From Halarcobacter sp. (lineage in GTDB: Bacteria; Campylobacterota; Campylobacteria; Campylobacterales; Arcobacteraceae), in the NCBI GenBank assembly GCA_963676565.1, contig OY781089.1:736001-800000 (forward strand): a DNA stretch of 64,000 nucleotides. The letters run 5' to 3'. This document shows positions 38,940 through 44,705 of the stretch, one piece after another (the stretch's first letter is position 1; the number at the start of each line of letters is the position of its first letter). The position numbers and the translations under genes are program-made. A model generated the notes under the pieces. The model worked only from the letters and a program-made list of their open reading frames with translations. It searched no databases and was not told the origin of the DNA.

Positions 38940-39746
38940 ATGAATGAATTATTGATTTTAATCCCTATTTTACTTGCAAGTGGAGTAGTTGCTGGCTTGC
39001 TTGCAGGCTTACTTGGTGTTGGTGGAGGGATTGTAATAGTTCCGATGTTATATCATATTTTTATATATATGAATATTGATATCTCTATTGCTATGCCTTT
39101 AGCTATTGGAACATCACTTTCAACTATAGTTGTAACTTCAATTATCTCTGCACGTTCTCACCATAAAAAAGGTGGAATTGATTGGGAGTTAGCAAAAAGA
39201 TGGATACCTTTTGTGATATTTGGAGTATTACTTGGAGCATCCTCTTCAAAGTTTATTGATGGGACAAATTTAAAATTTATGTTTGGTATTTTGCTTTTAG
39301 TTGTATCTTTACATATGATTGTTAGTAGCTTCAAAAGTTTAGTTATTGCCCAATCTTTACCTGGTAAATTTGGTCAATCGATTTTTGCAGTACTTCTTGG
39401 TGGCTTTGCCTCATTACTTGGAATTGGAGGAGGGACACTTATGGTTCCACTTCTTTCACTATTTTCATTTCCAATTCATAGAGCTGTTAGTACGGCTTCT
39501 TTGTTTGGGCTTATTATTAGTATCCCTGCAACAATTGGTTATATAATCGTTGGATGGGATGTTGAAAATCTTCCTTTAGCTTCAACAGGTTATGTAAACT
39601 GGTTAGCTTTTGCAGTACTTGTTCCCATGACAATGTTTTTTGCTCCTTATGGAGTAAAGTTAGCATATAAATTAAATGTAAAGCAGTTGAAACTAGCTTT
39701 TGCTATATTTTTATTATGTGTTGGAATAAAGATGGTTTTTGTATAA
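38940..39746 (+). CDS. TauE/SafE family anion exporter
   Basis: GLLGVGGG..VP repeated as LGIGGG..VP; AIGTSL. Confidence 0.85.
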   Translation: MNELLILIPILLASGVVAGLLAGLLGVGGGIVIVPMLYHIFIYMNIDISIAMPLAIGTSLSTIVVTSIISARSHHKKGGIDWELAKRWIPFVIFGVLLGASSSKFIDGTNLKFMFGILLLVVSLHMIVSSFKSLVIAQSLPGKFGQSIFAVLLGGFASLLGIGGGTLMVPLLSLFSFPIHRAVSTASLFGLIISIPATIGYIIVGWDVENLPLASTGYVNWLAFAVLVPMTMFFAPYGVKLAYKLNVKQLKLAFAIFLLCVGIKMVFV

Positions 39747-39830
39747 AACCATCTTTATCACTCTTCTTACCACTAGATTTTTTAATTATAAACATAGTAT
39801 CTTTTTAACTTCTAATAAATAGGAGATAAA

Positions 39831-40112
39831 ATGAAAAAATTAATTTTACTATTTACCTTAGCTATTTTTACTATCTCAGCAAATGCTGTTAGTTTTTCAT
39901 GGCTTGAAGGAAAGTTCAAAAATGGTGGAACAATCGATTCAGTGATGAATGAAGTTGATGCCGCTGGATGGGATTTTAGAACTTATACTTGGATTGATGC
40001 TGCAGGTAGAGTTTGTACGGTTGTTTTTACAGAAAACAAAGGTGGAAATCCTGATTGTGATTTTCCTCCAAAAGATTTTGATTATGATGCTTTTTATAAA
40101 AAAATGAAATAA
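39831..40112 (+). CDS. Small secreted hypothetical protein
   Basis: AGGAG RBS, signal peptide ANA, two Cys. Confidence 0.75.
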   Translation: MKKLILLFTLAIFTISANAVSFSWLEGKFKNGGTIDSVMNEVDAAGWDFRTYTWIDAAGRVCTVVFTENKGGNPDCDFPPKDFDYDAFYKKMK

Positions 40113-40128
40113 GAACTTAGGATAGATT

Positions 40129-41088
40129 ATGAATATAGTTGTAATTGGAGCAGGTGGAATTGGTGCTTTTTATGGGATGATTTTAGAAAAGTTAGGTTGT
40201 AATCTAACTTTCGTGGCTAGAAATGAAACCCTTGAGTTTTTAAAAAACAACAAGATGAAAGTAACTTATCAAAATGAAGTTCTTGAAAAGAAGATAGATA
40301 CTTACTCAATTGATGAATTAACCCAAAAATTTAGACCAGAAGATTTTGATGCAGTTTTTATAGCAACAAAGGCAATGAGTACAGAACAAATCTCAAAGAA
40401 ACTTGGTACTTGGACAAAAGATAGTACTAAGATTCCATATTATATCTCTTTACAAAATGGTGTTGAAAATGAAGATATAATGGAAAAATATTACAAAAAA
40501 GAGTATGTAATAGGTGGATTAACTAGACTTATTGTATCCCATACAATCTCTTTAGGTCATGTTCATTGTGAAGGTGAGGTTCAAACTTTAATTGGGGCAT
40601 TAAACCACACAAATGAAAATAAAAAATTTCTTGATGAATTAAAATTGATTCTTGATAAAACAGGAACAACAACTTTTATTTGTGAAGATATTAGACTAGA
40701 ACTTTGGAATAAACTTATAATAAACAATGGTGTTAATGCTATTTGCGCTTTAGTTCAAGAAGAATCTGGACCATTAATAAGAGATGAAAAAACATCAAAA
40801 TTAATATATGGACTTATGAGTGAAGCGGCAAAGGCTTCAAATGCTGTCGGGGTAAACCTTACTCAAGATGATGCAAAAAAGATGTTTGAACTTATGACAA
40901 ATTTCCAATCTGTAAAACCTTCTATGTGGGTTGATACTGAAAATAATAGAGATTTAGAACTTGATGAGATTTGTGGAGTTGTTATTAGAAACTGCGAGAA
41001 ACAAGGCTTTGATGCACCATATACAAGAACTATTTCTACACTTTTAGAGTTTACATATAATAAAAGAAGAGCTAAAATTAAGGCATAA
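40129..41088 (+). CDS. panE: Ketopantoate reductase family protein
   Basis: GAGGIG, LQNG, WNKL..N, PSM..D, ELDEI.G. Confidence 0.8.
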   Translation: MNIVVIGAGGIGAFYGMILEKLGCNLTFVARNETLEFLKNNKMKVTYQNEVLEKKIDTYSIDELTQKFRPEDFDAVFIATKAMSTEQISKKLGTWTKDSTKIPYYISLQNGVENEDIMEKYYKKEYVIGGLTRLIVSHTISLGHVHCEGEVQTLIGALNHTNENKKFLDELKLILDKTGTTTFICEDIRLELWNKLIINNGVNAICALVQEESGPLIRDEKTSKLIYGLMSEAAKASNAVGVNLTQDDAKKMFELMTNFQSVKPSMWVDTENNRDLELDEICGVVIRNCEKQGFDAPYTRTISTLLEFTYNKRRAKIKA

Positions 41089-41189
41089 AAAAAGGCTCCT
41101 TTTGGAGCCTTCCCTGATTTTTCGGAGAAATGATATTAATTCGCTTTTTAATATTTAAGATAGGAGTTCGCGGTTCCCTCTCAACCAAT
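41087..41189 (-). ncRNA. Putative sRNA, copy 1 of a tandem paralogue pair
   Basis: TATAAT at 41201-41196, 29-nt core identical to copy 2, terminator AAGGCTCC-AAAA-GGAGCCTT plus U-run. Confidence 0.7.
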
Positions 41190-41212
41190 ACTTATATTAT
41201 AATGGATGAGAA

Positions 41213-41250
41213 TTAATCATTTAGTAATGTTTAATTAATAAAAGGTTAAC
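41213..41250 (-). promoter_or_regulatory. Four direct repeats at 11-bp period upstream of sRNA copy 1
   Basis: (G/A)TTA(A/C) on the minus strand at 41246, 41235, 41224, 41213. Confidence 0.55.
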
Positions 41251-41258
41251 AAACTTAC

Positions 41259-41459
41259 TTATTTGTAATTTTCTTCTAAATCTCTCCATGTTAAATCTTT
41301 TTCAATTTTCATTTGATAAATATGTTTTGGAGCTGGAAATTTAAGTTCAACTGGTAAAGAAGCCCACTCTTGTACACTCATATCATTAAAATGATCCATT
41401 AATTGATGTTCTAATTCATTTGAAATTTCAACCATTTTTACTGATTCAACTCTTTTCAT
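41259..41459 (-). CDS. Small hypothetical protein (66 aa) between the two sRNA copies
   Basis: AAGGAG RBS; plausible protein composition. Confidence 0.75.
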   Translation of the reverse strand: MKRVESVKMVEISNELEHQLMDHFNDMSVQEWASLPVELKFPAPKHIYQMKIEKDLTWRDLEENYK

Positions 41460-41580
41460 TTTAAACTCCTTGTTTATTTTTATATGAAATTGTATTAGTT
41501 CAAAATGATATTAAAGTGATGTTTTGAACATATGCTCAAAACTTAAGTAAAAGTTTATTATTTTAAGGGATTTTTTAGGC

Positions 41581-41682
41581 AAAAAAAAAGGTTCCTATTG
41601 GAACCTTCAAATTTTGGAGAGTTTTAAATTCGCACATTAAACTTTATTTGAGATAGGAGTTCGCGGTTCCCTCTCAACCCAT
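41581..41682 (-). ncRNA. Putative sRNA, copy 2
   Basis: TATAAT at 41694-41689, same 29-nt core (41651-41679), terminator AAGGTTCC-AATA-GGAACCTT plus U-run. Confidence 0.7.
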
Positions 41683-41705
41683 AAGAAAATTATAATAGAT
41701 GAGAA

Positions 41706-41743
41706 TTAATCATTAAGTAATAAATTGTTAATCAAAGGTTAAC
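41706..41743 (-). promoter_or_regulatory. Four direct repeats at 11-bp period upstream of sRNA copy 2
   Basis: Same pentamers at 41739, 41728, 41717, 41706. Confidence 0.55.
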
Positions 41744-41815
41744 AATTGAATTTACTAAGAAAATAAGAGTAGATTTTTTATTTACATATATATAATAAAT
41801 AGAAAAAGGAAAATA

Positions 41816-42175
41816 ATGCAAACAAATTTATATGATGAACCACTAGCTGTATGCTCAACTTCTCCAATGACTGGTTTTTTTAGAGATGGTACATGTAGAG
41901 TATCATTTGATGATCAAGGAAGTCATAGTATTTGTGCTGTTATGACTGATGAGTTTTTAGAGTTTTCAAAATCTAGGGGAAATGATTTATCAACACCTAT
42001 GCCGATTTATGGTTTTCAAGGATTAAAAGCAGGGGATAAATGGTGTTTATGTGCTTTAAGATGGAAAGAAGCTTATGAAGCTAATTGTGCACCAAAAATT
42101 GATGCTAAGGCTACATCTAACCAAGCAACTAAATTTATCCCTAAAGAGATTCTTTTAAAGTTTAGTATAAATTAA
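41816..42175 (+). CDS. DUF2237 family protein
   Basis: PMTGFFRDG.C, GNDLSTP, GDKWCLCA.RW.EA. Confidence 0.9.
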   Translation: MQTNLYDEPLAVCSTSPMTGFFRDGTCRVSFDDQGSHSICAVMTDEFLEFSKSRGNDLSTPMPIYGFQGLKAGDKWCLCALRWKEAYEANCAPKIDAKATSNQATKFIPKEILLKFSIN

Positions 42176-42177
42176 AC

Positions 42178-42762
42178 CTAGTTTGATTTTTCTAAATACT
42201 TTATAATCTCTTTATTTGCTCTATTTGATAGAAAATATTGGTATAACATTTTATCCACATCAAAAAGTAGCTTACTTGTGTTTTGGATTTGAGTTGCAAC
42301 ATTATTTGAATCAACAGCAAGTTGAAGATACAACTCTTTATCTTCACTAATCCAAGTATTAACTACCTTTGAATAAGTCAGGGATTTTAGTGAAATATGT
42401 TCAGCAAACTTCTTTATATCTTTATCAAACACTTTAGGATTGTCTAGTTTTTCAGTATAGGCTTTATATAATTTACCTGTTTTAGAATAAATTCTTTTTA
42501 GTAGATTATTACTTGCAACAATAAGTGCCTTTTGTTTATAAAAATTTAGGTTTTCCTCTTTTACATCTTTTACAAAACCAATTGATGTGATATTATTTTT
42601 TATTTTAATATCAATTAACCATGCTGGAGAATTTGAAGGTATCTCAATCTCCTCTTTTTCTATCTTTTTTTTGGAGTCAGAAAAAGGATTGATTGAACTT
42701 AGTGAAAAACATCCAGTAAGCAAAAATGTCGAAATTAGAATAAAAAATATATTTTTTTTCAT
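42178..42762 (-). CDS. LPP20-like lipoprotein
   Basis: LTGC lipobox, P.W motif. Confidence 0.65.
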   Translation of the reverse strand: MKKNIFFILISTFLLTGCFSLSSINPFSDSKKKIEKEEIEIPSNSPAWLIDIKIKNNITSIGFVKDVKEENLNFYKQKALIVASNNLLKRIYSKTGKLYKAYTEKLDNPKVFDKDIKKFAEHISLKSLTYSKVVNTWISEDKELYLQLAVDSNNVATQIQNTSKLLFDVDKMLYQYFLSNRANKEIIKYLEKSN

Positions 42763-42776
42763 AAGTTTATAATTAC

Positions 42777-43946
42777 CTAACAATCTGAAAATTTAGAGAT
42801 AATCTCTTTTGATGCTTCAAGGGCTTTTTGGCTTGAGTCTTTATCAAAAGTTAATGCAACTGCCATTCTTCTTCCAACATGAGATTGTGGTTTTCCAAAC
42901 ACTCTTACAAAACTATTTTTTGTAAAAGCATCTTCTTCAATCTCTACAATTGGGTTAAAAGTATCATCTTTTGCTTTATAAGCAGCACTTGCTCCACATC
43001 CATAATCAATATAATCTAAAGGCAATCCTAAAACAGCTCTTACATGAAGGGCAAATTCACTTTGAGATTGAGTAATCATAGTAACCATTCCTGTATCATG
43101 AGGTCTAGGACTTACTTCACTAAAGAATACTTCATCACCTTGAACAAACATTTCAACACCAAAAATACCTCGTCCACCTAAACCATCAGTTACAGTTTTA
43201 GCAATTTTTTGTGCATTTTCTTTGGCTTTTTCACTCATATCCATTGGTTGCCATGAGAAGATATAGTCACCATCTTGTTGAATATGTCCAATTGGTTCAC
43301 AAAATACTGTTTGTTTTTCATTTCTTACCGTAAGCATTGTAATCTCATAATCAAATTTTATAAATGCTTCAACTATTAATTCACTTGCATCACCTCTAGC
43401 TTCTTTAGCAATTTCCCAAGAAGATTCTAAATCAGCCTCACTTTTTGCAACACTTTGACCATGTCCTGATGAACTCATTACAGGTTTAATTACACAAGGA
43501 AATCCCATATTTGAAGCTGCTCTTTGAAGCTCTTCAAAAGTACTTACAAATTCATATGGACCAGTTTTTACCTTTAATTCTTCTGCTGCAAATTGTCTGA
43601 TGTTTTTTCTATTCATTGTTTTATTAACTGCATCAGCATTTGGGATTACATGAAACCCTTCATTCTCTGCATCAAATAAAGCTTGGATATTAATAGCTTC
43701 AACCTCAGGTAAAATATATGTAGGTTTTTCTCTTCTAATTACATCTAATACTTCATTTTTATTTTTCATATTTATAGTATATGCTTTATTTGCAACTAAT
43801 TGAGCGGGTGCATTATTATAACTATCAACAGCAATTGTTTCAATACCTAATCTTTGTGCCTCAATTACAACCTCTTTTCCAAGTTCTCCACTTCCAAGAA
43901 GCATGATTTTTGTTGAATTAGATTTAATAGGTGCAGTAAATTTCAT
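42777..43946 (-). CDS. purT: Formate-dependent GAR transformylase
   Basis: [34 protein letters not shown]. Confidence 0.97.
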
Positions 43947-43955
43947 TGTTTTCCT

Positions 43956-44705
43956 TTAGTGTAAATTTAACATTTTGTCGTTTCTTATCATGATAAAAAA
44001 CTCTTTGTCATAATGTGCTAGGTGGTTTTTTCTAATAATTGATTGTAGAATTTTAACATAGTCGTGACCAATTCCAGAGTATTTTGTCATAGTTTTTGCT
44101 AGTTTCATACCATCAATAAACTCTTTTTTTAATCTCATTACTCTTCTTTTTGCCCTAAACTCATAATAAGCCTCTGTTCTATTTAGGTTTTTCATATATG
44201 CAGAAATAGAGTCTTGTAAAGTTGGAAAAATTCTAATAAAATGTTTTTTCCCTGTTTGTCTTTGAAGAGGAAGCATTCCAATTTTTGGATTATATGTCCA
44301 ATGACCAAATATATTGTTCGCTTCTTTAAAAAATCTACTTGTTCCCCAACCACTTTCTGTTGCAGCTTGTGCTAAGGCTAGTGATGGAGGAACTATATCA
44401 ATTCTTCTTAAAAACTCAGTATAATCATAGATATCTGAAACCTTATATTTTATTTGTAGTTCTTGAAGTCTTTTATACTCAAAAGAGTCTTCAATAAGAT
44501 TTTTTCTACCTAATAATGATTTAATAAATTCTCTTTCTTTTAAAATCTTTCTATTTTCTAATTCTATCTCTCCAATAAAATACTCAAAGAAATATTTTTT
44601 CTTTTTAGCCAATGGAAGCTTATAGTAATTAGGTGGAAAACCAGTGGCTTTTAGTGAAACCAAAAGCAAACTAAAAACAAAAACTATTTTTAAAAATATA
44701 TTCAT
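43956..44705 (-). CDS. Bax-like glucosaminidase (GH73) protein
   Basis: PPSLALAQAATESGWGTSRF..NNIFG. Confidence 0.85.
   Translation of the reverse strand: MNIFLKIVFVFSLLLVSLKATGFPPNYYKLPLAKKKKYFFEYFIGEIELENRKILKEREFIKSLLGRKNLIEDSFEYKRLQELQIKYKVSDIYDYTEFLRRIDIVPPSLALAQAATESGWGTSRFFKEANNIFGHWTYNPKIGMLPLQRQTGKKHFIRIFPTLQDSISAYMKNLNRTEAYYEFRAKRRVMRLKKEFIDGMKLAKTMTKYSGIGHDYVKILQSIIRKNHLAHYDKEFFIMIRNDKMLNLH

Follow-up and report, generated by a model that had tools for sequence, protein, structure and literature searches.

A sibling small RNA family of the Arcobacteraceae with predicted pairing to the start of the porin mRNA

In the Arcobacteraceae, two units that stand in tandem in the 64,000-nucleotide stretch of Halarcobacter sp. 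DNA analysed here (the window) are, judging from their sequence and that of their homologues, sibling trans-acting small RNAs (sRNAs) of an Arcobacteraceae-wide family. Gene anatomy, conservation, covarying structure, complementarity, operator sharing and the absence of Hfq were all computed, and on this evidence the sibling family is real, undescribed and furnished with a concrete, testable mechanism, in which predicted pairing would block translation of the porin (MOMP) mRNA. An initial annotation of the same DNA had recognized the two units and overlooked their two GCGAA seeds as pairing elements, the conserved operator, a third gene copy and the family-wide distribution. The subject bears on the means by which Campylobacterota, which have no Hfq, reduce the synthesis of outer-membrane proteins when the envelope is under stress.

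Anatomy of the two window units

The starts of the two minus-strand units are spaced 493 bp apart (by sequence, repeat search and alignment), and each unit combines TATAAT, an identical 29-mer and TCTCC, as the initial annotation had described (Table 1). In a BLASTN comparison of copy A with the genome, copy B was matched at 79 % over 176 nt (E 3e-35), and approximately 55 nt of promoter DNA 5' of TATAAT is also conserved between the copies; the copy A promoter has no canonical -35. The compensatory terminator change reported earlier was found as well, as a U-A to C-G double change that separates GGTTCC/GGAACC in copy A from GGCTCC/GGAGCC in copy B. Since the 29-mer core occurs only twice in the 3.34 Mb genome, even allowing 6 mismatches, A and B are no dispersed repeat, and the units have no terminal inverted repeats, which speaks against the high-copy repeat or MITE end considered earlier.

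The 66-aa ORF that lies between the copies, with its own Shine-Dalgarno sequence, is probably a passenger; a search for Pfam or NCBIfam families found none for it, its close homologues number only 6 (80-97 % identity, one being from 'Arcobacter arenosus'), and the tandem layout around it was seen only in the genome of the window (G000), G010 and G014. Copy B ends against a convergent gene and is therefore not a leader.

Table 1. Positions of the two units, their neighbours and related features elsewhere in the genome
Feature	Position	Strand	Remarks
Window
Copy A promoter	41689..41745	-	TTAAC-N6-TTAAC 41742-41727; TTAAT box 41709-41705; -10 TATAAT 41694-41689; DNA conserved with copy B 41745-41695
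Predicted sRNA copy A	41581..41682	-	~102 nt; start placed 7 nt past the -10 box; 29-mer 41679-41651
Copy A 5' hairpin	41648..41677	-	GCGAA in loop, 41664-41660
Copy A second seed and anti-Shine-Dalgarno	41616..41634	-	UGCGAAUUU with GCGAA 41633-41629; UCUCC 41620-41616
Copy A intrinsic terminator	41581..41608	-	GGTTCC/GGAACC arms
Copy B promoter	41196..41252	-	TTAAC-N6-TTAAT 41249-41234; TTAAT box; -10 TATAAT 41201-41196; DNA conserved with copy A 41252-41202
Predicted sRNA copy B	41087..41189	-	~103 nt; 29-mer 41186-41158
Copy B 5' hairpin		-	GCGAA loop 41171-41167; second GCGAA 41144-41140
Copy B complement of Shine-Dalgarno plus AUG	41133-41124	-	UCAUUUCUCC; TCTCC 41128-41124
Copy B terminator	~41112-41087	-	GGCTCC/GGAGCC arms
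66-aa ORF	41259..41459	-	Between copies A and B; own Shine-Dalgarno
Ketopantoate-reductase-family gene	40129..41088	+	Convergent; ends at copy B terminator
DUF2237 gene	41816..42175	+	Divergent neighbour
Elsewhere in the genome
Copy C	G000:C1:1388505-1388694	+	L031; type I
Campylo_MOMP porin gene	G000:C1:1058905-1059987	-	PF05538; single
Porin 5' leader	G000:C1:~1060095-1059988	-	Loci L164, L044-L073, L165-L183
Spy/CpxP-like LTXXQ gene, then response regulator and kinase	G000:C1:1264172-1266643	+	L389
Nucleotidyltransferase/phosphomannomutase-like gene g0264	G000:C1:294103-296586	-	L393

Distribution, structure and subtypes of the family

A third, diverged copy (copy C) was located outside the window by BLASTN and by a profile search of the genome, which thus holds three gene copies within a range of 1-6 per genome across the family. 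Among same-genus genomes, 20/24 gave BLASTN matches, and the pattern TATAAT..GCGAA..GCGAA matched in 21/21 plus G000 (1-5 matches each; control, 2 in the genus), its matches in other genera being mostly at chance level. A promoter-anchored pattern was found in 46/151 family genomes and 8/22 genera, and a covariance model in 83/150 family genomes and 15/22 genera at E up to 0.05, a count that includes the training sequences, which match by construction. The curated set comprises 66 units from 35 genomes, with five terminator-less candidates left out, three of which look real. Most of the 43 weaker model matches that were read have the operator, the 5' hairpin and the terminator; those in G110, G137, G067 and G086 are misplaced or partial, that in G102 looks false, and locus L260 was rejected as the antisense of a gene start. 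Outside the family the model found nothing in 138 genomes, and weak BLASTN matches in three other-family genomes were dropped because the profile did not recover them. Rfam scans of window positions 39000-44000, of 9 homologous loci and of the porin leader brought no family near the cut-off, in keeping with the earlier description of the two units as unannotated sRNA genes.

The structural evidence comes from homologue covariation, not from the stability of single-sequence folds, as each RNA alone is only modestly more stable than its shuffles (z -1.9 and -1.6). In the 59 units aligned to the model, pairing holds for 85 % of cells and double changes occur in 13/13 pairs, with a covariation score of 0.766 vs 0.228 for shuffled and at most 0.241 for slid alignments, in an alignment that, being fitted to the model, leans towards the given structure; it replaced a sequence-only alignment on which RNAalifold had missed the 5' hairpin, the registers being misaligned. 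Because all 13 pairs covary across homologues, the letters of the 5' stem vary freely and the identity of the 29-mer in A and B reflects common descent. The 29-mer had been taken for a conserved functional core, a reading that gives way here: stem letters change, pairing is kept, and the GCGAA loop alone comes close to being fixed. The two anti-Shine-Dalgarno CUCC motifs that had been proposed fared differently from each other, in that the 3' UCUCC is conserved and unpaired, whereas the first CUCC sits inside the 5' stem and is not conserved among homologues.

Within the genus, three subtypes can be told apart by their modules and surroundings. Type I, which includes copy C, has an extra UUUCCUUGUGUGU module and usually lies 5' of a UvrD-family helicase gene; type II is the type of copies A and B, which are without that module; and type III is short and sits behind mlaA-mlaC-MMPL-LOG genes. 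In many same-genus genomes (L113, L152, L154, L035 and others) type III siblings lie ~4 kb behind mlaA, a slot that is empty in G000. The module most widely kept outside the genus is UAUGUUUCCUUGUGU, which is without GCGAA. At L253 (G114:C13:129021-129285) two 5'-hairpin/GCGAA units follow in succession, and on L144 (G158:C31), a 1278-bp contig of a g11 genome that is possibly mis-binned, the transcribed part of the unit is identical to the copy in G008.

The units are very probably real sRNA genes, judged by features expected of the trans-acting class, i.e. an own promoter, an intrinsic terminator, no ORF, a conserved covarying structure and a seed that is conserved, unpaired and matched by complementary sequence in a conserved part of an mRNA, with seed/target covariation that is partial. 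Flanking genes differ between the family loci, which fits stand-alone sRNA genes, as had been suggested for the two window units.

The porin mRNA as predicted target

The single Campylo_MOMP porin gene is one of only 2/3076 genes with two TTCGC in the -70..+30 region, one lying in the structured leader (GUUCGCG at -49) and the other at codons 4-5. The loop of A and B, CGCGAAC, is the exact complement of GUUCGCG in the leader, and the seed of copy A (UGCGAAUUU, followed by UCUCC) and that of copy B (GCGAAUU..UCAUUUCUCC) each complement the Shine-Dalgarno sequence and AUG region of the porin as well as its codons 3-5. Cofolding placed both RNAs on the Shine-Dalgarno sequence and codons 3-5 with the sRNA hairpins intact (ddG -12.8 for A and -10.9 kcal/mol for B). 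A block of ribosome binding by base pairing, as first suggested for these units, is probable. The two GCGAA:UUCGC contacts run in parallel order, and forming both would take a knotted topology or else a pair of RNA molecules. The codons concerned (AAA TTC GCA AAA ATG) occur in each of the 22 matched same-genus genomes, although TTC makes up 216/1978 Phe codons in first-ten-codon positions of G000 and 4/10 in the porin gene.

In a target scan, 62 distinct homologues were run against 3076 start regions (own gene caller) with accessibility included. By a two-site score the porin ranked 1 of 3076 for 9 units from other genera, 2 for 13 short type III units, 53 for 30 type I units and 1 for 10 type II units, six of which are A/B orthologues from three close genomes and, as kin, not independent. 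The one-site group ranks were 11 (type II), 12 (other genera), 6 (type III) and 257 (type I), and six dinucleotide-shuffled type II sets put the porin at 768-2583. These ranks are to be read with the knowledge that the porin had been spotted by eye, from GCGAA complements near gene starts, before the scan, and that the two-site score is ad hoc. Taken singly, the copies ranked the porin at 19 (A), 76 (B) and 458 (C) by one site and at 103, 35 and 349 by two sites; plain duplex energy without accessibility was noisy (porin rank 30 with A, 5 with B and 196 with C). Over all groups taken together, the nucleotidyltransferase/phosphomannomutase-like gene g0264 stood level with or just above the porin. 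Overall, the porin is probably a true target of A and B.

The leading alternative holds that these are generic anti-Shine-Dalgarno sRNAs with many targets, chiefly mlaA, OmpA-family genes, TonB-dependent receptors and second porins, the porin being minor or a chance hit. The weak single-copy ranks given above speak for it, as does the fact that the top-ranked gene of type I siblings is mlaA, 12/27 homologues of which form duplexes of 10 nt or more with the UUUCCUUGUGUGU module (background 78/3076 genes), and with whose leader copy C is predicted to pair. It also accommodates the wide UAUGUUUCCUUGUGU module without GCGAA and the ACACAAGGA leaders, which in 10 relatives belong to genes including several outer-membrane proteins, none common to all. 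However, the UUUCCUUGUGUGU module is missing from copies A and B, the porin reaches group-level rank 1-2 for three groups and falls back in the shuffle control, and perfect runs of 12-13 nt track lineage-specific porin starts, so that this alternative is considered unlikely. A search for a single conserved target of the UUUCCUUGUGU module outside the genus found none.

The porin leader is itself a conserved structured RNA, undescribed so far, made up of a hairpin that varies, two stems, one of which shows C-G/U-A changes that compensate each other, and a UUCGCG strand that is unpaired and invariant. Strand and pattern are present in 69/151 family genomes and reduced or lost in several g11 genomes. 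Because UUCGCG is kept where the sole homologue inspected is without GCGAA (e.g. G071, G174 and G170), the leader may well have a role of its own in cis. Second porin paralogues in some relatives have ACACAA..GG leaders, and a promoter with TTAAC-N6-TTAAC precedes a second porin paralogue at L064, L071, L073 and L088 (G011, G008, G005 and G024), a hint that two porins may be under reciprocal control in the manner of OmpC/OmpF.

Seeds and porin codons

Outside the genus, several seeds differ in step with the porin start. In G030, GCGAU faces ATC GCA within a 13-nt perfect run; a GCGAU loop faces ATC GCA in G176; GAUUUUUUUCAUU faces ATC GTA over 13 nt in G130; UAAUUUUCUCAU faces ATG AGA AAA TTA over 12 nt in G118; and ACGAA faces TTC GTA in G140 and in the second copy of G094. 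Both parts are present in 46 genomes. In 21/24 of those with TTCGC the cognate variant was strictly best, a figure with some circularity, GCGAA having served as a search term. Where codons 4-5 differ (n=22, counted by eye), it was the best match in 5 genomes and shared that place in 3, but did worse in the other 14; many of these 14 retain no more than the loop seed and the anti-Shine-Dalgarno tract, and G085, with GCGAAUUUUU kept against ATC GCA, is a plain counter-example. The seed pattern TTTGCGATTTTT..TCTCC (G164, G176, G071, G094 and G063) returned only porin-gene antisense in 4/5 genomes and nothing in G094, and a relaxed seed pattern gave chance-level matches only. Read in antisense, the porin start (L240-L243) resembles the 3' half of the sRNA, a likeness suggesting that the sRNA may have originated from an inverted copy of the porin start.

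These same seeds bear on a titration model, according to which the RNAs would act in the CsrB/RsmZ-like mode, their GCGAA loops mimicking the site of an RNA-binding protein, possibly one acting on the porin leader. One 5-mer presented twice in loops, several gene copies per genome and the lack of Hfq would suit such a model, but what the porin mRNA carries is the complement, UUCGC, rather than GCGAA itself, in several lineages the seeds differ along with the porin codons, GGA is not the motif, and it is the anti-Shine-Dalgarno tract that is kept more widely. Titration is accordingly rated very unlikely.

Operator and candidate regulator

The promoters share the layout TTAAC-N6-TTAAC-N17-TTAAT-N10-TATAAT. 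Because Campylobacter sigma70 promoters carry a general periodic upstream signal rather than a -35 box (PMC3847290), the specificity of this operator was tested with a matrix, built from the upstream boxes of 90 promoters with G000, G010 and G014 left out. In G000, 5/5083 intergenic -10-like sites scored above 14, the next standing at 7.0, and the five are those of the three sRNA genes, the Spy/CpxP-like LTXXQ gene and htrA. The htrA gene heads an OmpR-type regulator and an ArsS-family kinase, and the LTXXQ gene is followed by a response regulator and kinase in a cpxP-cpxRA-like arrangement. The layout also precedes htrA in 5/5 relatives from five genera, and a strict operator pattern combined with a ribosome-binding site gave 5 matches in those 5 genomes, 4 of them at htrA (control 0). 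The matrix scan found no operator box at the porin, mlaA or ompA-like promoters of G000. An early reading of ATGATTAATTCTCAT as a Fur- or LysR-like site was dropped, as only its TTAAT part is conserved.

It is likely that the HtrA- or Spy-linked regulator drives the sRNAs; which of the two is not fixed, because two operons with related regulators carry the operator. The order htrA-regulator-kinase may be set beside the gene order of C. jejuni CprRS. CprR activates htrA and its own promoter (bioRxiv 10.64898/2026.10.05.755907), and a binding motif for CprR was not found in the literature searched.

The logic could conceivably be reversed, with pairing that activates or stabilizes the porin mRNA, or with an operator bound by a repressor. 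The leader is structured, with the loop contact 43-49 nt upstream of the AUG, and the third box lies where a -35 element would be, both of which would fit; yet the predicted duplex lies over the Shine-Dalgarno sequence and the first codons, and the same operator precedes htrA, which is activated by the C. jejuni counterpart, making reversal more doubtful still than titration. Finally, the poorest candidate of all, at very long odds, is a mobile repeat, a cis-acting leader or attenuator, or the antisense RNA of a toxin-antitoxin system in which the 66-aa ORF takes part, since the position of copy A 5' of that ORF on the same strand and of most type I copies 5' of the helicase gene is outweighed by the end of copy B against a convergent gene, by varying neighbours, by RNAs that are not antisense to the ORF, and by three copies per genome lacking terminal inverted repeats.

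Proposed mechanism

Under the preferred reading, i.e. repression of the porin by a stress-induced sRNA, envelope stress would lead a response regulator of the OmpR type to bind the operator, the likeliest candidate being the one whose gene lies behind htrA, together with that of an ArsS-family kinase. The bound regulator would activate the three sRNA genes along with htrA and the spy/cpxP-like chaperone operon. The sRNA would pair with the porin (MOMP) mRNA without Hfq, for which no PF17209 match was found in G000 (control positive in 5/14). Its second GCGAA and U/C tract would lie across the Shine-Dalgarno sequence, the AUG region and codons 2-5 and so block initiation, and the loop of the 5' hairpin could contact the exposed GUUCGCG strand of the structured leader. 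Porin synthesis would fall as chaperone and protease capacity rises. In this scheme we infer transcription, pairing in vivo, the sign of regulation, the identity of the regulator and the stress signal; the entire chain, from stress through two-component activation and sRNA to porin block, is judged somewhat more probable than its failure.

A broader reading, put forward tentatively and given slightly less than an even chance, is that the Arcobacteraceae independently evolved a repressive sRNA arm of their envelope-stress response. It would consist of an HtrA-linked ArsS-family two-component system, modular, Hfq-independent sibling RNAs that are expanding, a two-point contact with the porin mRNA (hairpin loop on the internal loop of the leader and seed over the first codons, a part held with the same tentativeness and only jointly with the rest), co-evolution of seed and signal-peptide codons, and an add-on module reaching MlaA and other outer-membrane proteins. 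The sRNA family, its target sites and its operator are open to direct tests, for which natural compensatory alleles provide controls.

Comparison with known systems

Several sRNAs of other bacteria resemble this family in parts. MicA and RybB have no sequence match to it in Rfam. They depend on Hfq and on a sigmaE promoter, whereas here there is no Hfq, and the promoter is of the sigma70 kind, TATAAT being preceded by direct repeats and a response-regulator-type operator; the present family also differs in having a pair of loop seeds and a copy number of 1-6 genes per genome. MicA and RybB repress major outer-membrane protein mRNAs, as is predicted here for the porin. The mode of action proposed is like that of these enterobacterial sigmaE-dependent RNAs and of OmrA/B and MicF (PMC5736990). 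With regard to sigmaE itself, C. jejuni is without RpoE (bioRxiv 10.64898/2026.10.05.755907).

OmpR-type control of the OmrA/B kind may have a parallel here in an operator common to two regulator-kinase operons. The OmrA and OmrB genes stand in tandem, their seed is the conserved 5' end, and Hfq is needed. The present family is not homologous to them, and its 5' end is a covarying stem instead of a single-stranded seed. OmrA/OmrB, which are siblings, and MicF are two-component-controlled repressors of porins and other outer-membrane proteins (PMC5736990). A likeness to the Cpx regulon is seen in the operator common to htrA and to the Spy/CpxP-like gene that heads a regulator-kinase operon. CpxQ, however, arises by processing of the cpxP 3' UTR and works together with Hfq (same source), whereas the sRNAs here are stand-alone genes and the kinase is of the ArsS family, not CpxA. 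Compared with sponges of the CsrB/RsmZ type, GGA loops are not conserved and the loops carry GCGAA.

Within the Campylobacterota, NikS of Helicobacter pylori represses several outer-membrane protein mRNAs by pairing with their leaders and, unlike the present family, is under NikR control (PMC8322730), and CJnc140 of C. jejuni adjoins porA and leaves PorA unchanged (PMC10470494). Both come from the same Hfq-less phylum and from outside the Arcobacteraceae, where the covariance model finds nothing in 138 genomes. The literature searched, whose scope stopped short of subscription journals and preprint supplements (e.g. Arcobacter transcriptome sRNA tables), held no Arcobacter sRNA and no porin-repressing Campylobacterota sRNA. 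If true, the proposal would mean that regulatory pairing constrains signal-peptide codons, would offer a model of chaperone-free, loop-mediated pairing, and would amount to convergence on the logic of MicA and RybB.
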